46,129 nucleotides of DNA. It comes from a virus. How positions within the stretch are numbered: position 1 is the first letter of the stretch; each line of letters opens with the position of its first letter. A program made the translations under genes and the position numbers. The notes beneath the pieces were generated by a model. The model was not told the origin of the DNA, searched no databases, and saw only the letters and a list, made by a program, of their open reading frames with translations. The stretch lies in the UHGV virus genome UHGV-0313764. One strand, written 5' to 3'. Positions 2,758 to 39,702 of this stretch are shown here, one piece after another.

Positions 2758-2973
2758 ATGTACAGGTTTGGTAGCGCAATGGCTGAGGTGTATGAGTTTG
2801 TTGGCGGGATGTCGATTGGAGAGGTGCGATTTTTTGTGGTAGATGATTTCCGTGCCAATAACAGTATTGAAAAATTCAGGGCGAGCCTGTGTTGTGTTGC
2901 GAAAGATAATTCGTGGCTTTTTGTAACCAGAAAGATGGAAGAAGGCGAAGTGTCTGTTCGGAGAATTAAATGA
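2758..2973 (+). CDS. hypothetical small protein (72 aa)
   Basis: An internal ATG at 2758 is preceded by GGAGG. The stop overlaps the primase ATG (ATGATGA). Confidence 0.35.
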   Translation: MYRFGSAMAEVYEFVGGMSIGEVRFFVVDDFRANNSIEKFRASLCCVAKDNSWLFVTRKMEEGEVSVRRIK

Positions 2974-5303
2974 TGATTGGTTATGAAGATTACCGCAAAT
3001 GTGGCTTCCCTATTATTGGAATCCATGCAATGGATATCGACCGCAATTGCACATGCGGTGATCCAGATTGCAATGCTGCTGGTAAGCATCCGGTTATGAG
3101 TAACTGGCAGCTTGGAGTTATATGGGCTGATGACCAGATTGAGAATATGGCTGAATATGGTCAATTGCAGTCATTCGGTGTCCTTGTGAATGGTTATCTG
3201 GTAGTTGATATTGACCCACGCAACGGAGGTAATGATGGATATGAATCGCTTTGTGATGCCTTAGACGTAGAGCTTGCTGACGAAGCAGGTTTTACGGTCA
3301 AGACTGGTGGCGGTGGTCGCCACATCTATTACAAACTTCCTGAAGGAATAAAGCTGCGCTCTCATGACAGAAGGTTTAAGGGTATTGACTTTAAATCCTC
3401 TGGTTTTGTTGTTGGCTGCGGCTCATTCCATAAGTCAGGTAACTTTTATGAAGCTGAGCATGGCTCCCCTTCAGAGATAACTGAATGTCCATCTGAACTT
3501 ATTGATCTTTTGTTGCGCCCTGAGAGAACGGAAGACGAGGTTTTCACGCTTGATAGTAAAAATTACAGCATTGCCGAAATGGAGGATATGCTCAAATACA
3601 TCAAAGATGGTGATGAGTATGACCCATGGCTTCATGTGGGTATGGCTATCCACGAAGCTACAGAAGGCAATGGTTTTGAGCTTTGGGATAGATGGTCATC
3701 GCAGTTCAGCAAGTACAGAGCTGAAGAGATGGATGCAAAATGGCATTCCTTTGGAAAGGACGGTGTTAGTGAAAAGATAACTGAAGCAACGCTGGTTTAT
3801 CTTGCGCAAGAGGGAGGGTGGGTAAGGCAAGTAACTTTTGAGGCTACTCCAGAGGAAATTGAGAAACTTGAGTTTTTCGAGCGAGAGATGGCAATGGGTG
3901 TTGGTGAATGCCCTGTAGAGTACAAAAGTGTTGATGTCCGTTATCCGCCTGGATTTGTTGGTCGCCTTACGTCGTGGATTAATAAGAACTGTGCAGAGAA
4001 GCGAGAGAACATTGCAGCACTTGCCGCATTGCATGCCGCATCCATGATTTGCGGAGCGTCATCTGATATTTACCTTACAAACAGGAAGGCTTTACCAAAC
4101 CTTTTTGCTGTTGGTATCGCTGGTTCAGGTTCAGGTAAGGGTGATGTCCTTGCTGCGCTACAAAAGATAATTGATTGCTCAGGATTGAGTAAGACTGTCG
4201 CCGGTAAGATACGCTCAGAGCGTGCGATATATGAAGGTCTTTGCGCTAACCAAATGTTTAATATCATCATGGATGAGATTGGGATAAAACTTGGTAGTGT
4301 TGTTGGTCAGAAAGTAAGCGAGTACAACATGGCAACCGCTGGTGCGATTATGGAGGCTTACACGTCAGAAGTTCTTTATTGTGACCAGCGGGTTACTGAG
4401 GATTTCATTAAGTCTTTCGAAAAGAGAAAGGCTATGCTGTTGATGGCTATTGAGGAAAATGAGATACAGGCAGACCCCGTTGACATTAAGTGTCAGTTTG
4501 ATGATGTGATAAACAGAATTGACGGAGCTATAAGGAATCCATTTTTTTCAATCTTTGGTGTGTCTACTGATGATCAGTTTAAGCGCCTTATTACTGAAGA
4601 AAACATTAAGTCAGGTCTTATGGGTCGCGCAATGATTATGCAGGAGTTACAGGAGATTGCTGACGAAAACGAAAACGTTAACTACTGTGATCTACCTATG
4701 GATATGCAACTGACCATAAAAACAATAATAAATGGTGGAACGGCTGGGCACAAAAACTGGACAGACTCAATAATCAGTCAAAAAGAAAGACGGATTATAA
4801 AAGCTACGCCTGAAGTTTCTCAGCTCGCTAAGGAGTTCTTCTCATGGATTAAAACCGTTGCAAGAAAGCATGTAGAAAATGGTACTGGTTATCACCCATT
4901 GATAAACAGATGCGCCGTGAAGGTGGCAAAGATTGCTGGCATTCTCGCGTGCGATACTGGCGTCATAACCATGGAGCACTTGAGGTATGCGGTAGCATTA
5001 ACAATTAAATCAACAAGCGATCTGATGATGCGTGCTGACAGTATCGCCGGAGCGAAGTCTAAAGCTATGGAAGAACGAATTGAAGGTATTTTCTCCATGG
5101 TTAAAGAATATGTGAAGCGTGGAATGACCAAAACAGCAATGGTTAGAGGGGTAGCAAAAGAAGGTGGGTATAAACGTGCTGATGTCGAGAGGTGCGTAGA
5201 GAAGTTGTTATCAGATGGTATTATTTGCATTGATGAAAATGCAAAAAGAACATCTCACAACGTAATAATTTACAAATTAACAAATGATGAGGTTGAGATA
5301 TGA
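2970..5303 (+). CDS. DNA primase-polymerase (archaeo-eukaryotic primase-like N-domain plus PriCT-like domain plus C-terminal NTPase-like region)
   Basis: 777 aa. The N-terminal region (LVVDIDPRNGG, hhDhD acidic motif) matches the PrimPol family. A PriCT-like region is present (YDPWLHVGMAIH...WDRWS). A glycine-rich loop GIAGSGSGKGD follows, a degenerate Walker A. It sits directly downstream of the iteron region. Confidence 0.7.
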   Translation: MMIGYEDYRKCGFPIIGIHAMDIDRNCTCGDPDCNAAGKHPVMSNWQLGVIWADDQIENMAEYGQLQSFGVLVNGYLVVDIDPRNGGNDGYESLCDALDVELADEAGFTVKTGGGGRHIYYKLPEGIKLRSHDRRFKGIDFKSSGFVVGCGSFHKSGNFYEAEHGSPSEITECPSELIDLLLRPERTEDEVFTLDSKNYSIAEMEDMLKYIKDGDEYDPWLHVGMAIHEATEGNGFELWDRWSSQFSKYRAEEMDAKWHSFGKDGVSEKITEATLVYLAQEGGWVRQVTFEATPEEIEKLEFFEREMAMGVGECPVEYKSVDVRYPPGFVGRLTSWINKNCAEKRENIAALAALHAASMICGASSDIYLTNRKALPNLFAVGIAGSGSGKGDVLAALQKIIDCSGLSKTVAGKIRSERAIYEGLCANQMFNIIMDEIGIKLGSVVGQKVSEYNMATAGAIMEAYTSEVLYCDQRVTEDFIKSFEKRKAMLLMAIEENEIQADPVDIKCQFDDVINRIDGAIRNPFFSIFGVSTDDQFKRLITEENIKSGLMGRAMIMQELQEIADENENVNYCDLPMDMQLTIKTIINGGTAGHKNWTDSIISQKERRIIKATPEVSQLAKEFFSWIKTVARKHVENGTGYHPLINRCAVKVAKIAGILACDTGVITMEHLRYAVALTIKSTSDLMMRADSIAGAKSKAMEERIEGIFSMVKEYVKRGMTKTAMVRGVAKEGGYKRADVERCVEKLLSDGIICIDENAKRTSHNVIIYKLTNDEVEI

Positions 5304-5722
5304 TCAATTACAAGTATCTGGTGATGAGAGGTTTGTATGACTATTTTGAGTCAGAAAATCCTGAGCGCGCACATGATAACGCAATATCCATGATGACAGG
5401 GAAACACCTGATGGAAGTTTACTACTGGAAAATGCCCGTATTCCGCTGCAATATGGGTATCTGCATTGATGATGACGTACTGTTTTGTCGAATACAATAT
5501 GAAAACAATGTAGGTATAGTGACAGCATCGTACAGGGATGTTGCAAGAAAATCCGGGAACTGGCATCCAAGCGAAGTTTTTGCGGGTGACGCACTATTTA
5601 ATTTCTGTAAGGCGTTTGGTGTTTTGTATGAGGATGTAAGCAAAGAGTATAGCGGAAGGCGTGAGAAAGATAGCTTGAGTTCCAAGGGCGTGACTAACTA
5701 CAAGGATAAAAATCATGGCTAA
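5300..5722 (+). CDS. hypothetical protein (140 aa)
   Basis: ORF overlapping the primase stop (ATGA). No family recognised. Confidence 0.4.
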   Translation: MINYKYLVMRGLYDYFESENPERAHDNAISMMTGKHLMEVYYWKMPVFRCNMGICIDDDVLFCRIQYENNVGIVTASYRDVARKSGNWHPSEVFAGDALFNFCKAFGVLYEDVSKEYSGRREKDSLSSKGVTNYKDKNHG

Positions 5723-6020
5723 CCTACATCTTGCCGTCAAAGGCGTATACTTCGATGCCATGCTCCGTGGAGAGAAAACTGAAGAGTATCGCCTTTTTAA
5801 TGATTCCTGGAAGAAACGCCTTGTTAACTTTAAAGATAGCGGACAGATTGGAAGGAAGTACGAACGGTTAATTATCACAAAAGGATATCCAAAGAAGGAC
5901 GATAAATCCAGGCGGATTGAAATCCCATACGAGGGATGGACGGTTAAAACCATCACACACCCTCACTTCGGCCCTAACCCAGTGGAAGTGTTCGCAATAA
6001 AAGTTAACATCAAAGCATAA
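5715..6020 (+). CDS. hypothetical protein (101 aa), possibly a PUA/ASCH-like beta-barrel domain
   Basis: ORF with start overlapping the previous stop. Weak resemblance to ASCH/DUF3850-type small proteins (N-terminal hLhhK..YF.AhhpGpKp.EhR). Confidence 0.35.
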   Translation: MANLHLAVKGVYFDAMLRGEKTEEYRLFNDSWKKRLVNFKDSGQIGRKYERLIITKGYPKKDDKSRRIEIPYEGWTVKTITHPHFGPNPVEVFAIKVNIKA

Positions 6021-6052
6021 CAAAAAGCCCGCAAACGCGGGCTTTATTATTT
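6021..6052. terminator. bidirectional Rho-independent terminator
   Basis: Hairpin AAGCCCGC-aaac-GCGGGCTT flanked by an A-run upstream and TTATTATTT downstream. It lies between the convergent plus-strand gene (stop 6020) and the minus-strand regulator (stop 6047). Confidence 0.6.
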
Positions 6053-6289
6053 AACAATCCATTTTGTAACAGCTGGCCTCAAATCTTCCTTTCTGAAAAC
6101 TCCACCAGTAAGCGCCTCGGCATCAATTGCTGCTGTAGCGCTAATTCTTCCTCTTGACACCCACTGATTGACAGCCTGTTTTGACACACCAAGAAACCTT
6201 GCCAGTTGTGATTGCCCTCCAACATAATCAATCAGCTCTGACAGCTTCGTCTGTTCCATTTCTCTTATCTGTTCTGCGATGCTTTTCAT
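6047..6289 (-). CDS. Cro/CI (XRE-family) helix-turn-helix transcriptional regulator
   Basis: HTH motif GGQSQLARFLGVSKQAVNQWV. The internal start MKSIAEQ has an AGAGG RBS. It is divergent from the Sak4-like operon. Confidence 0.6.
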   Translation of the reverse strand: MKSIAEQIREMEQTKLSELIDYVGGQSQLARFLGVSKQAVNQWVSRGRISATAAIDAEALTGGVFRKEDLRPAVTKWIVK

Positions 6290-6423
6290 GTGTTTACCTC
6301 TGCTATCTGTATGCAGCAATAATGAACTCAAAAAAAATTTTCGTCAAGGTATTGCGTTTACCAACACGTTGACGTATCTTTAAGTCACACCAGCGATATG
6401 CTGAGTTAAATCGAGGGGACACT

Positions 6424-7266
6424 ATGAGCTTATCAATGATTCAAAAACCAAAACCAGCAGCGCCAATCATAACATTGGTTGGTACTCCAGGTGTAGGCAA
6501 GACAACTCTTGCGGCGCTATTCCCAAACCCAGTGTTTATTCAGGCTGAAGAGATCACTGGTGTTTTTGATGACTGGGATGATGAAAAGAAACCAGATTCA
6601 TTTCCTGTACTGAAGCGAGCTGATGCTAAACGCAAAACAAGCACAAAGGATGATTTGCTGTCACAGCTACGCGCATTAATTACTGAGGAACATAATTACA
6701 AAACGCTTGTAATTGACTCAATCACAAGCCTGCATTCAATGTTTGAGCATGAGGTTTGTGAAAATTACGGTGTTGACAACGTAGGTTCTGCGGCTGGTGG
6801 TTACAACAAAGGATATATTGTTGTTTCTGAAATGCACGCTGAAATAATAAATGCATGTAAGTATCTTCGCAAAGAAAAAGGGATGAGCATTATTTATCTT
6901 GCACACGCAGGTGTTAAAAAGATGAAAAATCGCCCTGATGCTGATGAATACACTGTTTACACACTTGACATGCATGATGCTTCTGTTTCTGGCTATGTGA
7001 ATCTTAGCGATGCTGTTATTTACATCAGGAATGAGGAGTTCGTGAAAGGAACTGAGACTGATAAGAAAGGGCAGGTGACCAAGTTTGGAAAGGTTGTTCA
7101 GACTGGTCAGCGAGTTCTTATTACATCTGGCGATGGTAGAGTTGGATATGTTAATGCAAAAAACAGATACAACCTTGAGCCTGAAATTCCTTTTGAAAAA
7201 GGTGAGAACCCACTTTTGAGTGAGATTAAATATTATGCATCTCTACGAGATAACCAAACAGCTTAA
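6424..7266 (+). CDS. Sak4-like RecA-fold ATPase (AAA_24-type recombination/annealing-associated ATPase)
   Basis: Walker A LVGTPGVGKTT near the N-terminus. Size and context (next to Gp157-like and SSB-like genes) fit phage Sak4 modules. Confidence 0.65.
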   Translation: MSLSMIQKPKPAAPIITLVGTPGVGKTTLAALFPNPVFIQAEEITGVFDDWDDEKKPDSFPVLKRADAKRKTSTKDDLLSQLRALITEEHNYKTLVIDSITSLHSMFEHEVCENYGVDNVGSAAGGYNKGYIVVSEMHAEIINACKYLRKEKGMSIIYLAHAGVKKMKNRPDADEYTVYTLDMHDASVSGYVNLSDAVIYIRNEEFVKGTETDKKGQVTKFGKVVQTGQRVLITSGDGRVGYVNAKNRYNLEPEIPFEKGENPLLSEIKYYASLRDNQTA

Positions 7267-7714
7267 TGAACTGATGGCGATGGAGGATATTCCACGGGAG
7301 CAGATTGAAGATACCATCAATCTTATTGAAGAGGAGTTTGAAGGAAAAGCTGAAATGGTCGCTGCTTACATTCGTGAGCTTGAAGCTGATGAAGCTGGAC
7401 TTAAATCCGAGATTGACCGCCTTTCTGAGCGTAAGCGTGTTTTAGTTGCGAAGATTGATAACCTTAAAGATTATCTTTGTCAGAACATGATGGCGTCAGG
7501 AAAGACAAATATCAAAGGTAAGTTGTTCAGTATCACTCTTGGCAAACCGTCACCAGTTCTTGATGTGTTTGTCCCTGTTGAACAGCTTCCTGAGCAGTAC
7601 CGCGTTGTGAAAGTGTCGGCAGATAAAGCAGCAATTAAAAATGCGATAAAAGCCGGGATTGAAATTAATGGTTGCGCCATCACCGACGGCAAACCGAAAC
7701 TGATCATCAAATAA
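7235..7714 (+). CDS. Gp157-like protein (siphovirus Gp157 family), coiled-coil N-terminus
   Basis: ATG at 7235 overlaps the Sak4 3' end. Acidic coiled-coil N-terminus and neighbourhood are typical of Sfi21-type Sak4/Gp157/SSB modules. The family call is an inference. Confidence 0.45.
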   Translation: MHLYEITKQLNELMAMEDIPREQIEDTINLIEEEFEGKAEMVAAYIRELEADEAGLKSEIDRLSERKRVLVAKIDNLKDYLCQNMMASGKTNIKGKLFSITLGKPSPVLDVFVPVEQLPEQYRVVKVSADKAAIKNAIKAGIEINGCAITDGKPKLIIK

Positions 7715-7731
7715 ATCGAGAGGACACAAAA

Positions 7732-8253
7732 ATGGGTTTCTGGAATCTTTCTGACGGTAAAGCTGTTGAATCTAAATCTGAATTTGAACTGGGTGGTGGT
7801 TTCGAAGTAATTCCTGATGGCAGTCGTGTTCTTGCTGCCGTTGAAGAATGTAAAGACGACCAGTGGGAAGGTGAGCGATTCTTTAATCTTAAGTGGCGAA
7901 TCCTTGAGGGTGAGTATAAAAATCGCATCATCTTCCAGAAGCTGAAAGTATTTAGCTCAAAAGAAAAGCAGCGCGACAATGCTATCACTATGCTTGCAGC
8001 AATTGACGCAAACGCAGGTGGCAAGCTGATGGCTTCAGGTAAGGAGCCGACTGATTTTGCTATCGCCAGTGCGCTTGCAAATCGCCCAATGATTCTTCTT
8101 TTGCGAGTTTGGGAGTCTGAGGATAAGCAAAAAACTGGTAACTATGTGGCTGGCGTTTTCAGTCGTCAACAGACAAAAGCAGCGCCTGCTCCTAAGCAAT
8201 CTGCACCGTCTAACGAACCTCCGATGGATTTTTCTGAAGATGTGCCGTTCTGA
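7732..8253 (+). CDS. putative ssDNA-binding protein whose C-terminal tip mimics E. coli SSB
   Basis: ATG at 7732 is preceded by the conserved AAATCGAGAGGACAC motif. The C-terminus ...QSAPSNEPPMDFSEDVPF closely matches the E. coli SSB tail ...SAPAAPSNEPPMDFDDDIPF. The N-terminal domain is not E. coli SSB-like. Confidence 0.55.
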   Translation: MGFWNLSDGKAVESKSEFELGGGFEVIPDGSRVLAAVEECKDDQWEGERFFNLKWRILEGEYKNRIIFQKLKVFSSKEKQRDNAITMLAAIDANAGGKLMASGKEPTDFAIASALANRPMILLLRVWESEDKQKTGNYVAGVFSRQQTKAAPAPKQSAPSNEPPMDFSEDVPF

Positions 8254-8267
8254 TTAAGATTGGAATG

Positions 8268-8295
8268 ACAGGGCCATTCGTGGCCCTTTTTTATT
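8268..8295 (+). terminator. Rho-independent terminator or attenuator upstream of the helicase gene
   Basis: Hairpin GGGCCA-ttcg-TGGCCC followed by TTTTTTATT. It lies 13 nt before the helicase ATG, so partial read-through is required. Confidence 0.55.
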
Positions 8296-8307
8296 CGAGA
8301 GGACACT

Positions 8308-10176
8308 ATGAAAGTACAGCTTAGAACATACCAACAAGAAGCTGTTGATTCTGTTATAGGTCATATTCGTTCAAGCGTTTCATCATGCATGATCATTTTG
8401 CCTACAGGGTCTGGGAAAAGCGTTGTTGTTGCATCAATAGCCGATTGGGTTTTTAAAAATACTGGCAAGCGCGTTTTGTGTGTTGCCCCAACAAGTGAGT
8501 TAGTTGTGCAAAACAGGCAGCGTTATCTTTCTCTAACAGGAGAACCAGCCAGCATGTTTAGCGCTAAAGCTGGCCCTAAAAATCTTCGCCACCCGGTAGT
8601 ATTTGGCTCTCCTGTCACAATAAAAAATTCTATTGAAATGTTTGGTGATAAGTATGGCGCTGTCATTATTGATGAATGTGATGGAATAACGCCAACCATT
8701 AAATTTATTATTAATGAGATGAAGCGTCGCAATCCAAAACTGCGTGTTATTGGAATGACCGCTACGCCTTATCGCCTTGGAACTGGATACATCTACAAAG
8801 AGCACTACCTCGACGGTCCTACAGATGAAGAAACAGCCATAGAGCCATATTACGACAAAGTCGTTTATGAGCTTGAAGCTAAATTTCTCATAGAAAACGG
8901 ATACCTTACTCCTCCAGTGACAGAGCCTGTTTTTGACGAGTATGATACGTCTTGTCTTGAAAAGGATAAGTTAGGTCGGTACACGACAGCTTCAGTTGAA
9001 AAGGCGATGGTTGGAAAAGGAAGAAAAACATCACGTATTGTTGAGGATATTATCCGTCGCTCTGTTAATCGGCGCGGAACGATGATTTTTGCCAGCACCA
9101 AGAAACACGCTATGGAGATAATGGAGTCACTTCCTCCCGGTTCTTATAGTTATGTTTTTGGTGATATGCCAACAGCAGATCGCAACAAAGCAATATCAGA
9201 CTTCAAGGCGCAAAAGGTTAAATACATCGTTAACCAGAATATCCTTACTGTAGGGGTGGATGTTCCTCATTGTGATCACATAGCAGTAATGAGAGCCACA
9301 GAATCACCAAGACTCTACCAGCAAATAATTGGCAGGGGGACGCGTCTTTATGAAGGCAAGAAAGACTTTCTTGTCAGCGATTACGCAGGCAATATTCAAC
9401 GTCACTTTTCTGAGACCGGGGACTTGTTCACTCCAGAAATAAAAGCAACAAGGAAAAAACCATCAGTCCCAATGGATGTTAAATGCCCGTTATGTGGCTT
9501 TATCAATGAATTTGGTGTGCGTCCTAATCCTGAAAATCTTGAAGTTGACAAGGAAGGTTACTGGCTTGATTTGGCTGGTGACAGGGTGATGATTGATATT
9601 TTTGATAAATCAGGTGAAAAAATTGGAAGCAAGCCTATGCCTGCTCATTTTGGGAGGAGGTGTAAAAACTACGTTATGCATGGGCCATTAAGGGAAATGC
9701 ACAGGTGTACTTATAAGTGGTCGGTGAAAGAGTGTCCTGATTGTGGATTTGAAAATGATATAGCGGCAAGAAACTGCACATCATGCGGCGCTGAAATCAT
9801 TGACCCAAACCAAAAGCTAAAAGAAGAAGCTGACAGGCTTGATTCTTCTCCTTATGCAACAAAGCAATCAAGCGTAACCATGATGAACATCATGAAGCAT
9901 TACGTTTCAAGCGGTGAAGATTTAGTGCACGTAAAATTTGCTATTGAACAGAAACCATTTTTTGTTAGCAAGTTCTACAATCCAAACTCTGAGAAGGAAT
10001 GGATGAAGAAGGAGTGGGAAGAGTTTTGTGGGAGGTGCTTTGGTGAATCTGGCATGTCAATTGATGACGCAATATCTAAAAGAGATGAGGCTGTCGCGCC
10101 ATCAGTGATTATGTTCAGAAGAGATAAAGGAAGTAAATATTTCAACGTTAAAGGCATGTATTGGGGTGTATTATGA
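8308..10176 (+). CDS. SF2 DEAD/DEAH-type helicase with C-terminal zinc-ribbon inserts
   Basis: Motif I ILPTGSGKS, motif II IIDECD, motif III GMTATPYR, motif VI QIIGRGTR. C-terminal CxxC pairs (CPLCGF..., CPDCGF...CTSCG). Confidence 0.75.
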   Translation: MKVQLRTYQQEAVDSVIGHIRSSVSSCMIILPTGSGKSVVVASIADWVFKNTGKRVLCVAPTSELVVQNRQRYLSLTGEPASMFSAKAGPKNLRHPVVFGSPVTIKNSIEMFGDKYGAVIIDECDGITPTIKFIINEMKRRNPKLRVIGMTATPYRLGTGYIYKEHYLDGPTDEETAIEPYYDKVVYELEAKFLIENGYLTPPVTEPVFDEYDTSCLEKDKLGRYTTASVEKAMVGKGRKTSRIVEDIIRRSVNRRGTMIFASTKKHAMEIMESLPPGSYSYVFGDMPTADRNKAISDFKAQKVKYIVNQNILTVGVDVPHCDHIAVMRATESPRLYQQIIGRGTRLYEGKKDFLVSDYAGNIQRHFSETGDLFTPEIKATRKKPSVPMDVKCPLCGFINEFGVRPNPENLEVDKEGYWLDLAGDRVMIDIFDKSGEKIGSKPMPAHFGRRCKNYVMHGPLREMHRCTYKWSVKECPDCGFENDIAARNCTSCGAEIIDPNQKLKEEADRLDSSPYATKQSSVTMMNIMKHYVSSGEDLVHVKFAIEQKPFFVSKFYNPNSEKEWMKKEWEEFCGRCFGESGMSIDDAISKRDEAVAPSVIMFRRDKGSKYFNVKGMYWGVL

Positions 10177-10628
10177 TTTTTCCAGAAGGCGTTAAGGTAT
10201 ATGGCGATTTAGATTACAGAAACAAAAAGTGCCCGTCAGAAGATGCTGAACTGGAGACTTTTGTTAATCAGATAAGGAAGCTATATCCTGACTTTGCAAG
10301 AGTTATGATTCATGTGCCAAATGAAGGCAAGCGTAAAGGGTATGAAGTTGAAAACCTGAAGAAAAAGGGCGCGTTAAACTTCGGTGCCTCGGACATCATT
10401 ATCATCGGAAAGCAATCATTCGTTATGGAGATGAAGAGAATGGATCACACTTTATCAAAGTGGCAACCAGGGCAAATGGCATACCTCAAGGCTGCAAAAG
10501 AATTAGACTCCTTCGCGTGTGTATGTCTAGGCTGGGAAGCGGCAATGATGGCATTTAACGACTGGAGAGCAATAAATTACCCAAACTATAAAAAACCATC
10601 AGAGCCATTAATATTTGATGGTTTTTAA
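10173..10628 (+). CDS. VRR-NUC (PD-(D/E)xK) nuclease
   Basis: ATG at 10173 overlaps the helicase stop (ATGA). Motifs HVPNEGKRKG...GASDIIII...EMK match the VRR-NUC catalytic core. Confidence 0.6.
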   Translation: MIFPEGVKVYGDLDYRNKKCPSEDAELETFVNQIRKLYPDFARVMIHVPNEGKRKGYEVENLKKKGALNFGASDIIIIGKQSFVMEMKRMDHTLSKWQPGQMAYLKAAKELDSFACVCLGWEAAMMAFNDWRAINYPNYKKPSEPLIFDGF

Positions 10629-25708: not shown

Positions 25709-25737
25709 TTGACGTAGATTGACGGCATGTTTATAGT
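25709..25737 (+). promoter_or_regulatory. sigma70-like promoter TTGACG-17-TATAGT (promoter-family member)
   Basis: TTGACGTAGATTGACGGCATGTT TATAGT, followed by AATGACGTAGAA. It drives the 25777-28229 island. Confidence 0.6.
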
Positions 25738-25776: not shown

Positions 25777-25965
25777 ATGAAAGATGAATTTATTGATTAT
25801 GACGTTAAACGCCAAGAAATGGCTTCTGATGCAACGTTGCGCGATTATTTTGCCGCAAAAGCAATGCAATCTCTATTAATTACATCACCAAATATGGGTT
25901 ATGGCGAGAAGGCTAAACATGCTTACCTTATCGCAGAAAGAATGATGGAGGCGAGAATCAAATGA
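25777..25965 (+). CDS. hypothetical protein (62 aa)
   Basis: RBS AGAGGTGATGAG then ATG. First gene of the island. Confidence 0.45.
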   Translation: MKDEFIDYDVKRQEMASDATLRDYFAAKAMQSLLITSPNMGYGEKAKHAYLIAERMMEARIK

Positions 25966-26300
25966 AAGATGATTTCAAAGGCACAAAAGGTCCGTGGCAG
26001 GTTTTACCAGAAGAAGTAGATAAGCCATACATCAGAATCAGAGGCACAATTATTGGTCATCGATATAAGGTGGCAAATGTATTAACACCTGTTTATGAAA
26101 ATGTTCATGCCAGAGAGGCTGATGAAACGCGTGCAAATGCAAAGTTAATAGCCGCAGCACCAGAGTTACTTGAAGCTCTTCGTCAGATTCGCGATTATGT
26201 TGAGGATGTTTGCGCAGTATCGTCGGATGATTTTCATGAGGAACATCCATTAAATCTGGCGAACAAAGCAATCAAGAAAGCATTAGGAAAGAAACAATGA
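25962..26300 (+). CDS. conserved phage protein, FKGTxGPW...ANAxLIAAAPELL family (paralog 1)
   Basis: 112 aa. Shares FKGT(K/P)GPW, NA.L(I/L)AA(A/S)P(E/D)LL and (A)(I/V)(K/N)KALG(K/E) motifs with 37526..37816. Confidence 0.5.
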   Translation: MKDDFKGTKGPWQVLPEEVDKPYIRIRGTIIGHRYKVANVLTPVYENVHAREADETRANAKLIAAAPELLEALRQIRDYVEDVCAVSSDDFHEEHPLNLANKAIKKALGKKQ

Positions 26301-27106
26301 AGACACTAAGCAAAATCTACTCAGACAAAGAAACGCGCAACGGCATCGCTGTCAACAAAACCTATCTCGTGCCAGTGGAGCAAATCTATCTTGAGCCGGG
26401 ATACAACATCCGTGAAGCAGACGAGCAACACGTTGAATATTTCGCTCAGTGCTGGGAATCAGGCCAACCATTACCAGCATTAACGGTTATTCCAGATGAG
26501 AAGGGAATCCGCATTCTTGATGGTCAACATCGCTATCTCGGCGCATTGCGTGCCATTGAGCGCGGCGCGCCAATCGTTCGCATTGAGTGCAAGGATTTCA
26601 CTGGCGATGAGGCGGACAAAATCGCCTTCATGGTGTCATCCAGTCAGGGCAAGCAACTTGACCCGTTTGAGCGCGCAAAGGCTTACACGCGACTGAAAGG
26701 CTTTGGCTGGACGAATGAAGAAATCGCCAAGAAGGTAGGGCGCTCAGTATCTGACGTGCAAATGCATCTGTCACTGGGTGATGTTCCGGCGGAAGTAAAG
26801 GCGCGCATCAGCGCCGGACAAATCAGCTATGCAAATGCCGTAGCGGTAACGCGCGAACATGGCGATGATGCGGTTAAAGTTATCGACGAGGCAGTGGAAG
26901 AGGCCAAAGCACAAGGCAAGGATAAGGTCACGGCAAAGGTGCTGAAGTCAAAAAAGATTAAGCCAGTAGATCGCCTGATTGAGTTACTGAAGCCAGCTGA
27001 CCATGTGATTCTTCCTGCTGGTCATGTAGTTGCAGAGGATGAGGAATTCATCCAGATTCCTGTTACTGACATTCACGAGGTCATGGCAATTCTGGAGAAG
27101 ATGTGA
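26297..27106 (+). CDS. ParB-like nuclease domain (ParB/Srx N-terminal) protein with HTH
   Basis: 269 aa. Motif ILDGQHRYLGALRA (ParB N-domain GxxRxxA-type) and HTH WTNEEIAKKVGRSVSDVQMHL. No ParA partner is present. Confidence 0.55.
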   Translation: MKTLSKIYSDKETRNGIAVNKTYLVPVEQIYLEPGYNIREADEQHVEYFAQCWESGQPLPALTVIPDEKGIRILDGQHRYLGALRAIERGAPIVRIECKDFTGDEADKIAFMVSSSQGKQLDPFERAKAYTRLKGFGWTNEEIAKKVGRSVSDVQMHLSLGDVPAEVKARISAGQISYANAVAVTREHGDDAVKVIDEAVEEAKAQGKDKVTAKVLKSKKIKPVDRLIELLKPADHVILPAGHVVAEDEEFIQIPVTDIHEVMAILEKM

Positions 27107-27357
27107 TGAGTAAGTATGAAGAACTCGACGCAATGATTATGGATGAGCTTGATTATATTGAGCCAATGACGTTCATGGCTATTCATTTCTCTGGAGGCAT
27201 TCACAGCGGAATACATGCAGAGTGTGAAAAGCTGGCTACAAAACCGCATGAAGGTTTTCGTGTTCTTGACCGCAGGTTGCAAGCGCTAAGAAAGAAAGGC
27301 CTTATTGTATCTCATGGTGCAAGCAAAGGATGGGTGAAGGTAAATCATGAACGCTGA
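27103..27357 (+). CDS. hypothetical protein (84 aa)
   Basis: ORF with ATGA overlap to the ParB-like gene. Confidence 0.4.
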   Translation: MMSKYEELDAMIMDELDYIEPMTFMAIHFSGGIHSGIHAECEKLATKPHEGFRVLDRRLQALRKKGLIVSHGASKGWVKVNHER

Positions 27358-27520
27358 ACAATTCATCGAAAAACAACTTCGTGCCAAGTTGCCTGAAATC
27401 GACCAGATGGCAATTGATGCGGCGATTCAGTACTACAAGCGAAATCAGAGCGCAAAGAAGGGAGGCATTTTTGAAGAATGCCTGAAGGTTGCAAAACAGC
27501 ACATGATTAAGGTGAAGTGA
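27347..27520 (+). CDS. hypothetical small protein (57 aa)
   Basis: ATG at 27347. Coupled to its neighbours by overlapping stop/start codons. Confidence 0.3.
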   Translation: MNAEQFIEKQLRAKLPEIDQMAIDAAIQYYKRNQSAKKGGIFEECLKVAKQHMIKVK

Positions 27521-27696
27521 TGGAATTAACTGATTTAAAAGTTGGAGACAAGATAATCATTCCGGAATATGACCCGCTACCTTGCGTAGTTGAGAAGGTA
27601 GATATTGAGGACAAAATTCAACCAGTATATGTCCGATGGGAAGACGGAACCGCGACATGGCCTGAGCCTAAATATAAATTTGAGGTGATCAAATGA
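27520..27696 (+). CDS. hypothetical small protein (58 aa)
   Basis: ATG at 27520 (ATGA overlap). Its stop overlaps the ATG of the clamp-like gene. Confidence 0.3.
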   Translation: MELTDLKVGDKIIIPEYDPLPCVVEKVDIEDKIQPVYVRWEDGTATWPEPKYKFEVIK

Positions 27697-28229
27697 AACT
27701 AAAAATCAGCAAACTATTACTTGAATCAGCATTAATATTTCAGGCGCGCAATGATGTGCGCTACTACCTGAACGGCATCTGCTTCATGCCTGATGGTCGT
27801 ATTGCCTCAACTGATGGTCATCGCGCATTCATTGGTGGCAGTCATGATAATAAGCTGACAGAAAATGTGATTATCAAGATTGGCAAGTCGCCAACAAAAC
27901 GCTATGAATACGCCATAATTGATACCAAGTCGAAAATTGCAACGTATCATGATAAGGCTGGCGCGATGGTTGGTACTGGTATCTGCGAAGAGATTGATGG
28001 TCGATTCCCTGATATTGACCGCATCATTCCTCAGCAGACCTCACCAACAGAGGAAATTGACTTCAACGCTGGCTATCTTGTGGATGTCGAGAAATCTGCT
28101 AAGCTGTTTAATCCTAAATTCTGTGGTGTCAAATTTGAACTGAATGGAAATACAAATGCAGCAGCTTGCTGTCTTAGTGCGCCATCTGGCGAGATTGCAA
28201 AGATTGTTGTTATGCCTGTGCGTCTGTAG
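27693..28229 (+). CDS. truncated DNA polymerase III beta sliding-clamp (DnaN) homolog
   Basis: 178 aa. Motifs as I recall them from E. coli DnaN domain II and the C-terminus: DVRYYLNG (identical), ASTDGHRAF vs VATDGHRLAV, DGRFPDIDRIIP vs DGRFPDYRRVLP, KFCGVKF vs KFRGVRL, and C-terminal VVMPVRL vs VVMPMRL. It is about half the length of DnaN (366 aa). Confidence 0.6.
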   Translation: MKLKISKLLLESALIFQARNDVRYYLNGICFMPDGRIASTDGHRAFIGGSHDNKLTENVIIKIGKSPTKRYEYAIIDTKSKIATYHDKAGAMVGTGICEEIDGRFPDIDRIIPQQTSPTEEIDFNAGYLVDVEKSAKLFNPKFCGVKFELNGNTNAAACCLSAPSGEIAKIVVMPVRL

Positions 28230-28232
28230 CAA

Positions 28233-28265
28233 TAAAAAACCCGCATTATGCGGGTTTTATTTACT
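28233..28265. terminator. bidirectional Rho-independent terminator
   Basis: Hairpin CCCGCA-tta-TGCGGG flanked by AATAAAAAA and TTTTATTTAC. Confidence 0.6.
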
Positions 28266-28502: not shown

Positions 28503-29573
28503 TTACACCGGAGTTTGCGTGCCGTAGCCGTTGAACACTTTGGATTTGCCGGAGAAATCGCGGCGAACCTGAAGCCCCATAGCAGACCACACGAGGAAGT
28601 TGAAATTAGCGTGCGGAGTGGTGCGTGGCTCTGCATAGGTGGATACCGGCTGAGCAACACGCGGACGGATGTACATGTCGTTGCGAACGTAGCCAACGAA
28701 ATGGTTACCAGTCAGCAGGAAGTTGGTGCCAATCTTACCAATGCGACCATTGCCGAACTGCGTGATGTACTGCTCAACGGTGCCACCTTTGAAGCCTGCC
28801 GCATCAGAATACGGACGCATGAAGCTGCGACGCACTGCCGGGGAAACCCACAGAGTCACCTGCTCAAATACGTTCTGCGCATCCAGAATAGCCTGGAAAT
28901 CCTGATTGAAGAAGGTCACGATTTCATCTGGCGTTGCGGTTTGCAGGTCGATATTCAGGCCGCCGGAAGCATTCAGGTTAACCTGAACAGTGTTCGGGTG
29001 GTTGGTGATGCCGTAGCCAGTGTAAACGCCGTTCACGTTCAGAGTCTGGTCACCAGTCAGCAGATACTGCGCCATATCGGAACGCAGGTTAAAGGTGACG
29101 TTAGCCTGATCGTCCAGCAGTGAGTCAAAACCTTCGGACTGCATACCCAGCAGTTCTCGCCATTCGCGGCCGTAGCCAGTTTTGAAGATTGGAATCACAT
29201 CTCCAGTGTAATCGTAGCGAGTTTTATCCAAATCTTCCGGCTCCTGACCAGACAGGGTGCGAACAACCTTGCCAGCATCGGAAGCGATGCGGCTGATTGC
29301 CACAGTCTTACCAATATTGATGTTTGCTGCGATGCCCATCAGGTCAGCCATCATGTCCTGACCAGCTTCGTTGCGGAAAACGCGGGTGGTGACGTTGTCA
29401 ACGTCGCGCCAGTAATCTTTCGTTACCAGTGCGGTAGCGTTAACGCCATAGGTTTTCGCCAGTTCAGCTTCTGCATCGCAGAACACTTTACGGTCGATGG
29501 TAAGATGTTTCCACTGGTCAGCCACCACTGCGGAGTTGGCTACCAGGTCTTTGGTAAAAATAATCTTTTCCAT
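28503..29573 (-). CDS. major capsid protein
   Basis: 356 aa. Position is immediately after the decoration gene and the protease-scaffold gene (lambda-like C-D-E order). Confidence 0.7.
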   Translation of the reverse strand: MEKIIFTKDLVANSAVVADQWKHLTIDRKVFCDAEAELAKTYGVNATALVTKDYWRDVDNVTTRVFRNEAGQDMMADLMGIAANINIGKTVAISRIASDAGKVVRTLSGQEPEDLDKTRYDYTGDVIPIFKTGYGREWRELLGMQSEGFDSLLDDQANVTFNLRSDMAQYLLTGDQTLNVNGVYTGYGITNHPNTVQVNLNASGGLNIDLQTATPDEIVTFFNQDFQAILDAQNVFEQVTLWVSPAVRRSFMRPYSDAAGFKGGTVEQYITQFGNGRIGKIGTNFLLTGNHFVGYVRNDMYIRPRVAQPVSTYAEPRTTPHANFNFLVWSAMGLQVRRDFSGKSKVFNGYGTQTPV

Positions 29574-38687: not shown

Positions 38688-38720
38688 ACCAAGCCCTCAC
38701 TTGGAGGGCTTTTTGTTATT
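38688..38720 (+). terminator. Rho-independent terminator
   Basis: Hairpin AAGCCCTC-acttgg-AGGGCTT followed by TTTGTTATT. Confidence 0.55.
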
Positions 38721-39702
38721 GCTCTGGTTTTCCTCCGAGCTTTCTAATAATTTCTGCAGCAACGCACGGATCAACATTAAAAAATTCAGTCGCCCCATCG
38801 AAACCTGACAACCCAGCATTTAAGTCCTTTAGCTTCCTATGCGCAGCGCCTTCCGCTTTCCTTGCTTTGTAATAGCTTTCGAATGAGAACTGACACAACA
38901 AAGAGATAGAAAGACCTGATTTTTTAGTTAGTTGCTGAATCCTTAGCGGAACGTTATTTGATAAACCTATCTTTATCATTCCATCTGCTTCCAACAAATA
39001 AACCATAGTCTTTTTGAATGGGTTTCTTCCTGCGCATTTTGCACACCCGCGACCCTTGGCGTGATGGCCAGCAAACTGGCGAAAACTGCCATGAATAGGG
39101 CATATTATTTCAACCATGCTATTCATTCCACTAAAAACCACCTCATCATATAAATATTTCCCGCCATGGGCCTCTTTACATCTTGCTATGAAGGATTCTG
39201 TATCCATGCCACCTTTTCCACTGCAAACCCTGCACCCAATATTCCCTCTCAAGTGATCTCTTGCTATTTGCTGGAATTCACCATGTTTTTTGCACCTTAT
39301 GGTTATCATTGACAGCATTCCAGAGTATTTGGTTGGTGAATAATCATAAATATCATGGTTTTTACTGGGAATCATATCCATAAACTCATCATGACTGTAC
39401 CCGTTATGCATTCCCCTGCCGGGCCTGCACTTTCTGCATCCGTTGCAGCCGTTGAGGTGATCATTTGGCGTCTGTTTAAATAACACATCATGCTGAATAC
39501 ATCTAATGATTACTGGCGATTTCCTTTTGATGTATTTAGTTTCTGAATAGTCAAATTTATCGCCGTGAATTAACTTAGCGCGTGAAATGAAATCTTCTGT
39601 GGTAGGTCTTTTTGCCATCATTAACCCCGTAGCAGGCTCGTAGATTGAGGACTGCAGCAGGGTGTCTACGTTCACCTTTTCGCCTGGCCGGACTAGCTGC
39701 AC
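38716..39702 (-). CDS. T5orf172 (GIY-YIG-like) domain protein with three N-terminal Cys/His zinc-ribbon-like repeats; putative homing-type endonuclease
   Basis: Three repeats of about 55 aa each (...KYIKRKSPVIIRCIQHDVLFKQTPNDHLNGCNGCRKC; ...MITIRCKKHGEFQQIARDHLRGNIGCRVC; ...VEIICPIHGSFRQFAGHHAKGRGCAKC), plus a C-terminal MVYLLEADGMIKIGLSNN...L T5orf172-type module. Confidence 0.55.
   Translation of the reverse strand: MQLVRPGEKVNVDTLLQSSIYEPATGLMMAKRPTTEDFISRAKLIHGDKFDYSETKYIKRKSPVIIRCIQHDVLFKQTPNDHLNGCNGCRKCRPGRGMHNGYSHDEFMDMIPSKNHDIYDYSPTKYSGMLSMITIRCKKHGEFQQIARDHLRGNIGCRVCSGKGGMDTESFIARCKEAHGGKYLYDEVVFSGMNSMVEIICPIHGSFRQFAGHHAKGRGCAKCAGRNPFKKTMVYLLEADGMIKIGLSNNVPLRIQQLTKKSGLSISLLCQFSFESYYKARKAEGAAHRKLKDLNAGLSGFDGATEFFNVDPCVAAEIIRKLGGKPEQ

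Follow-up and report, generated by a model that had tools for sequence, protein, structure and literature searches.

The 46,129-nucleotide virus genome UHGV-0313764, the whole of which was analysed here and is called the window, encodes a strongly shortened relative of the beta sliding clamp DnaN, which we refer to as the mini-clamp. The 178-aa product is homologous to DnaN far beyond chance, and by residue identity it has retained the pocket that takes up clamp-binding motifs (CBMs), while both halves of the interface that closes the DnaN ring are gone. We put at about even the chance that the mini-clamp works as a free-standing, non-ring CBM receptor for host replisome and repair proteins, either as a sponge or as an adaptor.

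Homology of the mini-clamp to DnaN

The open reading frame (ORF) was found exactly at the position given by a first-pass annotation, which had been made from the sequence alone, and its product was as quoted there. The claim of a phage-encoded truncated DnaN homologue was borne out by BLASTP, phmmer and hhalign, which all gave significant matches, so a non-significant alignment, which had been named as a ground for giving up the claim, was not what we found. BLASTP against E. coli DnaN gave E = 4e-13 with 29% identity between residues 7-153 of the query and residues 136-288 of beta, phmmer against all PDB sequences gave 31 matches, all of them beta clamps (best E = 3e-11), and the profile of a 129-member family aligned to E. 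coli beta with a probability of 99.5% and E = 2.8e-22 in hhalign. The 129 relatives were representatives of 50%-identity clusters and were 26-49% identical to the query. The residues and numbering of the E. coli DnaN query agree with the PDB 1mmi alignment and with the pocket residue names used in PMC11139829. The AlphaFold2 (AF2) monomer model of the mini-clamp was compact (pLDDT 97, pTM 0.91), and its top Foldseek matches in the PDB were beta clamps only. The sole Pfam match was DNA_pol3_beta_2 (PF02767) with 15.6 bits, which was under the curated cut-off of 27, and TIGR00663 scored 29 bits, under its curated cut-off of 137.65; these sub-threshold scores fit a strongly reduced DnaN derivative.

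The window is a Skatevirus-like siphophage, and over the mini-clamp region it is ~91% identical to other siphophages of this kind (Skate, swi2, Sf11, Akira and BASEL Bas78/79), and these matches infect Salmonella, E. coli, Shigella and Klebsiella. In their records GenBank labels the gene "DNA polymerase III beta subunit", and RefSeq and pharokka, after PHROG 3007, label it "RusA-like Holliday junction resolvase". The RusA label has spread to the RefSeq/pharokka annotations of many phages (e.g., NC_054639.1). The mini-clamp does belong to this PHROG, because phrog_3007 covers its residues 1-178 with profile positions 1-186 of 190 (E = 4.4e-61). If the label were right, the protein would be a RusA-like resolvase, and the label in phrog_3007 and the RefSeq annotations is what speaks for it. 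But no RusA Pfam match was obtained even at E <= 1, and the fold and all structure matches are those of beta clamps, as is the 99.5% profile alignment with DnaN. The resolvase identity was rejected as already refuted by sequence and fold, and we regard it as next to impossible.

Parts of the clamp that are lost and kept

The coding sequence and its two clamp-like parts are located as follows.

27693-28229, + strand: mini beta-clamp coding sequence, 178 aa plus stop codon
27693-27995, + strand: domain II-like part, aa 1-101, aligned by hhalign with beta ~129-238
28047-28226, + strand: second half of domain III, aa 119-178, aligned by hhalign with beta 313-366

In the hhalign comparison the family aligned to beta 113-250, which means domain II and the connector DGRFPDxxRVxP, and then directly to beta 313-366. 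The family alignment covers neither domain I nor the first half of domain III (beta 251-312). The retained ~60 aa correspond to the second beta-alpha-beta-beta-beta half of domain III, and they contain FNxxY (N320/Y323) and the C-terminal VVMPVRL (V360-L366). The predicted absence of domain I was confirmed by hhalign and by a tblastn search with DnaN, which found no domain I across the whole window and gave the mini-clamp ORF as its only match. The accompanying statement that the C-terminal strand was all that remained of domain III had to be corrected, since the whole second half of this domain is kept.

A frameshifted or broken clamp gene, which the first-pass annotation had feared, was ruled out by the gene's own Shine-Dalgarno sequence and terminator, by the lack of any domain I in the window and by homologues that are nearly all equally short. 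DSSP analysis of the AF2 model showed a short loop at aa 64-72, where the clamp domain has its second helix. The second helix of domain II is kept in the distant relative P0219, so the loss of the helix is specific to the subfamily of the window protein.

Mutation of I272/L273 renders beta monomeric (PMC11139829), and both residues lie within the missing 251-312 segment. The same segment contains residue 305, which faces residue 103 at the dimer interface and is joined to it by a cross-link in PDB entry 3pwe. With domain I, I272/L273 and residue 305 all absent, both halves of the ring-closing interface are gone, and the mini-clamp has neither the three-domain protomer of ~366 aa nor the head-to-tail dimer interface of DnaN. 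The dominant-negative subunit that had been proposed is unlikely to act via the normal dimer interface, because the mini-clamp lacks domain I as well as the first half of domain III.

A ring could also be built in another way, if the protein were a true sliding clamp that assembled itself, as reported for E. coli beta*, e.g., by pairing of half-domains between subunits, and was loaded by the host gamma complex. The clamp fold and the intact pocket residues would agree with this, many GenBank records read "DNA polymerase III beta subunit", and, as we infer from geometry only, the lone half-domains of two copies could together make up one domain. However, three beta-alpha-beta-beta-beta repeats, with still fewer helices in the window subfamily, cannot tile a 12-repeat ring head-to-tail unless domain II is broken, both canonical interface halves are deleted, no conserved patch was seen beyond the pocket and the monomer model is already compact. 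A self-assembled ring is thus very improbable in our judgement.

The structural equivalence of clamp domains would also allow a poison subunit, which would cap a host beta protomer, e.g., with the free edge of domain II replacing domain I, and would block ring closure and stop host replication. The shortened E. coli form beta* reportedly oligomerises through a domain II-domain III contact, which would be in favour of such capping, and a dominant-negative subunit had been suggested in the first-pass annotation. But the reciprocal contact would require the half of the domain III interface that is missing, the edge strands are not conserved, the host beta dimer is highly stable, and the window phage itself needs a working host replisome, so we give a poison subunit very little credence.

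Conservation of the binding pocket

In E. coli beta, subsite I of the pocket consists of R152, L155, T172, G174, H175, R176, L177, P242, R246, V247, V360 and M362, and subsite II consists of H175, N320, Y323, V344, M362, P363, M364 and R365 (PMC11139829). Three stretches of the domain II-like part and the connector carry residues of this pocket.

27753-27776, + strand: DVRYYLNG, aa 21-28 = beta 150-157, 8/8 identical, with pocket residues R152 and L155, plus Y154
27810-27824, + strand: TDGHR, aa 40-44 = beta 172-176, pocket subsite I and the H175 bridge
27996-28031, + strand: DGRFPDIDRIIP, aa 102-113 = beta 238-249, inter-domain connector with pocket residues P242, R246 and V247

Among the mappable pocket residues, 14 of 17 were identical to those of E. 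coli beta and 2 more were conservative, at an overall identity of 29%. Twelve columns were conserved at 90% or more across the 129 relatives (D21, R23, Y25, L26, G28, T40, G42, H43, P106, Y128, M174 and P175). Pocket residues made up 9/12 of these near-invariant columns (hypergeometric p about 1e-8), and the remaining 3/12 belong to the same DVRYYLNG loop. T40, G42 and H43 were each conserved in at least 92% of the family, and the values were 99% for P106, 93% for Y128, 96% for M174, 91% for P175 and 85% for R177. No conserved surface patch outside the pocket stood out across the relatives. The early claim that the pocket residues are retained was therefore upheld, and they are also the most conserved columns of the family.

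Four of the five motifs on which the DnaN assignment was originally based (DVRYYLNG, TDGHR, DGRFPDIDRIIP and VVMPVRL) do match beta, but the fifth, KF(C/R)GV(K/R), could not be supported. It is literally present at aa 142-147 and agrees there with beta 277-282, which belong to the deleted part of domain III. In the profile alignment, however, the segment falls opposite beta ~333-340, and the motif is not conserved in the family. This agreement is probably a chance match or an internal-repeat match.

C-terminal extensions of 10-30 aa past MPxR were present in ~15/129 relatives, and the window protein has no such tail. Phi-x-W-Phi was seen in 10 of about 17 tails (GWY, GWL, SWL, EWI, LWV, EWF, TWL and similar; relatives P0203, P0213, P0219, P0228, P0236, P0257, P0263, P0266, P0269 and P0270), and several tails end in AA, as ssrA tags do. 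The P0219 tail ELDLSWLAA was modelled by AF2 with a short helix and a pLDDT of about 91, suggesting that the tail packs against the protein body. A WL dipeptide has been proposed as a subsite I binder (PMC11139829). Since the C-terminus is located at the pocket, this proposal implies that a Phi-x-W-Phi tail may occupy the CBM pocket, either in cis or in trans.

Replication genes of the window phage

No DNA polymerase gene was found in the window, in which every ORF of >400 aa was assigned otherwise (a PrimPol+PriCT_2+DUF3987 helicase-primase, an SNF2/DEAD helicase, tail proteins, the tape measure protein, phrog_760, portal and terminase), and none is annotated in phage Skate either. Without a polymerase gene the window phage must borrow a host polymerase, presumably Pol III. 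So the proposed reliance on host Pol III is plausible here, but it does not hold in general, because relatives of the mini-clamp are carried by Dhillonvirus and Kagunavirus phages, which encode a family A DNA polymerase. For the same reason, the idea that the mini-clamp tracks the absence of a phage polymerase was rejected as a general rule.

The window phage also encodes a single-stranded DNA-binding protein (SSB).

7672-8253, + strand: SSB, DUF669/phrog_9002, with the C-terminus PPMDFSEDVPF

The end of this protein, MDFSEDVPF, closely resembles MDFDDDIPF, the acidic C-terminal tip of E. coli SSB, which recruits chi and other host factors. This resemblance suggests that the polymerase-less window phage could plug into the host replisome via its SSB.

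The replication module of the window at 2970-10628 contains PrimPol-PriCT_2-DUF3987 (777 aa), AAA_24, Sipho_Gp157, the DUF669 SSB and the SNF2 helicase. The module of Skate is different and contains two primases, exonuclease VIII, an AAA protein and an SSB. The modules differ despite ~91% identity otherwise, which indicates module swapping within this phage group.

Proposed function

The ring parts were shed and the pocket stayed near-invariant across deep divergence, so a soluble CBM receptor is the simplest reading of the mini-clamp, and the earlier idea of a decoy for clamp-binding proteins fits this conservation pattern. According to this proposal, the clamp would have been reduced to the part that forms the CBM pocket, with domain II and the second half of domain III providing the sheet and the groove. 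A host-type promoter would drive the mini-clamp as the final gene of an accessory operon, and the product, either soluble or located at the phage fork, would bind the CBM peptides of host proteins of the replisome or of repair, with the DNA not encircled. On the host clamp, the equivalent groove is the docking site of Pol III alpha, epsilon and delta, Hda, MutS/MutL and Pols II/IV/V. As a sponge, the mini-clamp would be a competitor that withholds CBM clients (repair, translesion synthesis, Hda and possibly the loader subunit delta) from clamps. As an adaptor, it would hold a CBM-bearing host polymerase, namely Pol III, at the fork of the polymerase-less phage.

Canonical CBMs (QLxLF, QxxLF and QLxLxF) gave only two weak internal matches in the early and accessory proteins of the window. 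The same motifs were sought in the PolA and early proteins of Dhillonvirus, where none was present in PolA and no phage ligand was identified. With no canonical CBM found in the early proteins of the window phage or in the PolA of relatives, the ligand of the mini-clamp is probably a host protein rather than a phage protein.

Several points weigh against a CBM receptor of this kind. If the sponge took up Pol III alpha or delta, it would harm a phage that depends on Pol III, and the client selectivity that would then be needed is entirely conjectural. Some relatives are carried by phages that encode a PolA themselves, which means that the family need not have one role linked to host Pol III, and the mini-clamp gene is located outside the replication module of the window phage. 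The 129 relatives were gathered by similarity to the query, which gives an ascertainment bias toward shared motifs, the pocket conservation included. Finally, the family has a median isoelectric point (pI) of 8.25 and the query has a pI of 8.2, whereas that of E. coli beta is 5.25, and this basic pI may point to direct DNA binding instead.

Direct DNA binding is the core of the main rival, a non-ring tether like herpesvirus UL42, by which the monomer would bind duplex or primer-template DNA via a basic face and hold a CBM-bearing polymerase, host Pol III alpha or another, with no need of a loader. K19, which is 74% conserved, is part of the loop that corresponds to beta 148-152, and this loop contacts DNA in beta. 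K134, which is 76% conserved, is on the retained helix of domain III, and in some phages the gene adjoins helicase, primase or nuclease genes. The basic pI of query and family, compared with beta, counts for a tether too, since pI was the criterion used by Kazlauskas and Venclovas to split ring clamps from non-ring, DNA-binding processivity factors (PMC3201878). However, 33% of the family members have an acidic pI, the window subfamily has lost one DNA-channel helix, and a search for CBMs in the phage PolA of relatives gave no match. By analogy with UL42, such a tether is conceivable, but we think it unlikely.

The CBM receptor reading can be extended to a more specific version, which we offer tentatively and consider rather unlikely. 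As a monovalent module with nothing but the pocket, the mini-clamp might strip low-avidity clients (MutS/MutL, Hda and Pols II/IV/V) from clamps left on phage DNA and spare the bivalent Pol III core, or it might hand Pol III to the PrimPol-helicase fork. A homodimer in which two half-domains complete one domain would be possible in this version, and the relatives with Phi-x-W-Phi tails would be self-regulated or clamp-docking versions.

Gene, operon and locus

The mini-clamp is the last gene of a + strand operon at 25777-28229, which lies downstream of a promoter candidate.

25709-25737, + strand: candidate sigma-70-like promoter, TTGACG-17-TATAGT, 10/12 consensus matches
25777-25965, + strand: ORF of 62 aa
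25962-26300, + strand: phrog_1273 gene
26297-27106, + strand: ParB-like/KorB helix-turn-helix gene, phrog_1033
27103-27357, + strand: phrog_7185 gene
27347-27520, + strand: phrog_4439 gene
27517-27696, + strand: ORF of 59 aa, unrelated to the mini-clamp
27682-27687, + strand: Shine-Dalgarno sequence GAGGTG of the mini-clamp, 5 nt before the ATG, read from the sequence
28236-28258, both strands: bidirectional intrinsic terminator with a 10-bp stem and T-runs, between the mini-clamp and the convergent head genes

The count of promoter-like sites in the region was not above the shuffled expectation, and the candidate at 25709-25737 is a consensus match only. The operon genes abut or overlap, and the stop of the 59-aa ORF shares 4 nt (ATGA) with the start of the mini-clamp. 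A terminator is likewise annotated at the equivalent position in phage Skate. The operon is flanked by structural genes on the - strand, with the tail module upstream and a small ORF and the major capsid gene (28503-29573) convergent downstream. Farther along the window, a 328-aa ORF at 38716-39702 (- strand), which is endonuclease or HNH/homing-endonuclease-like (phrog_681, phrog_559), was found beside a head morphogenesis gene; Skate has several HNH genes at other positions.

Size, spread and gene contexts of the family

A word-indexed search gave 465 homologues, the best 120 of which were all 171-269 aa and nearly all 177-193 aa long, and many of these 120 were on complete phage contigs of ~46-48 kb. 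An exhaustive search of 1.84 billion representatives gave 160 clusters at E <= 1e-10. Among the best 150 of these 160, almost all were 165-220 aa long, started near DVRYYLNG and ended with (I/V)MPxR(L/I/V). By tblastn, 296 phage records carried the family, with Enterobacteria, Vibrio, Acinetobacter, Burkholderia, Xanthomonas, Proteus, Pantoea and Rhizobium as hosts or sources, and BFVD contained many phage models of the same fold (163-250 aa, TM-score up to 0.89). Matches on plasmids were mostly full-length dnaN on chromids, with a few short copies in Burkholderia, and were uninformative. One relative, P0251, is 318 aa long; it is extended by ~108 residues at the N-terminus, and its C-terminal part resembles a full-length domain III. 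This intermediate length indicates that a graded series of DnaN truncations is present in the databases.

The gene contexts outside the window were as follows.

Dhillonvirus: two-gene island (Nmad5 and mini-clamp) within the head module
Kagunavirus: single-gene island with its own terminator
Murrayvirus: flanked by Dam and Dcm methylases, beside primase/helicase
Lietduovirus: helicase, nuclease, mini-clamp
Metagenomic contig: beside ArdA

A conserved neighbour gene was considered and rejected, because the ParB-like neighbour in the window and the Nmad5 neighbour in Dhillonvirus are unrelated and the other contexts differ again. The neighbours vary by genus, yet DNA-modification and anti-restriction types recur among them (ParB-like/KorB in the window, Nmad5, Dam/Dcm and ArdA), and a C-specific methylase is the neighbour of the mini-clamp in some Skatevirus relatives. 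The association with DNA-modification and anti-restriction genes is loose. The PADLOC defence models gave no match for the mini-clamp or its operon partners.

Relation to known systems and significance

Compared with DnaN (E. coli beta; PDB 2pol and 1mmi; TIGR00663; Pfam DNA_pol3_beta_2/_3), the mini-clamp is alike in sequence, fold and CBM pocket, including MPxRL, but it is half the size, lacks both domain I and the first half of domain III, and has a basic instead of an acidic pI. The closest cellular analogue is E. coli beta*, a UV-inducible internal product of dnaN (dnaN*) with domains II and III, which was reportedly described by Skaliter, Paz-Elizur and Livneh in 1996. Like the mini-clamp, it is truncated at the N-terminus, begins near the start of domain II and keeps the pocket. 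Beta* retains all of domain III and reportedly supports Pol III as a trimeric ring, whereas the mini-clamp is without the half of domain III that makes the trimer contact, and with beta 251-312 missing it does not have two complete domains. The herpesvirus factors UL42/UL44 share the clamp fold, have no closed ring or loader, bind a polymerase peptide and have a basic pI like the mini-clamp family. They differ in that their sequence is unrelated, they have two full domains and their DNA binding is proven experimentally.

Short phage homologues of PolIII-beta were described in 2011 by Kazlauskas and Venclovas as domains II+III, with no function given (PMC3201878), and the role of stand-alone PolIII-beta homologues was explicitly asked in a 2016 survey by the same authors. 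The mini-clamp is of the same family as these short homologues and PHROG 3007. In contrast to the 2011 description, the window protein has only half of domain III, and its conservation is centred on the pocket. Other phages likewise manipulate the host clamp or CBM network: MuC of phage Mu binds the clamp through CBMs (PMC12867686), and the lambda small RNA LPR1/PreS raises dnaN translation (bioRxiv 10.1101/2024.10.31.621285). But these act on or through the host clamp, whereas the window phage supplies a copy of the pocket itself.

The mini-clamp is thus an annotated member of a known, uncharacterised family, and the gene itself is not new; a literature search gave no work on the function or structure of this family. 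What is added here is the exact deletion architecture, with half of domain III kept and both interfaces lost, the conservation centred on the pocket, and the correction of the RusA label. The "RusA-like Holliday junction resolvase" label in pharokka and RefSeq should accordingly be changed.

The pocket of the beta clamp, an antibiotic target, is a hub that brings bacterial polymerases, mismatch repair, Hda and other factors to DNA. In a phage family that comprises at least ~130 clusters at 50% identity and occurs in about 300 sequenced phages, this pocket was retained and the ring was discarded. If a stable 178-aa monomeric pocket is confirmed, it could be used as a reagent for screening CBM peptides and inhibitors. 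If true, the CBM receptor reading would also make the family a natural tool to titrate or redirect clamp clients, and would answer the 2016 question on stand-alone phage PolIII-beta homologues, especially for phages without a polymerase.

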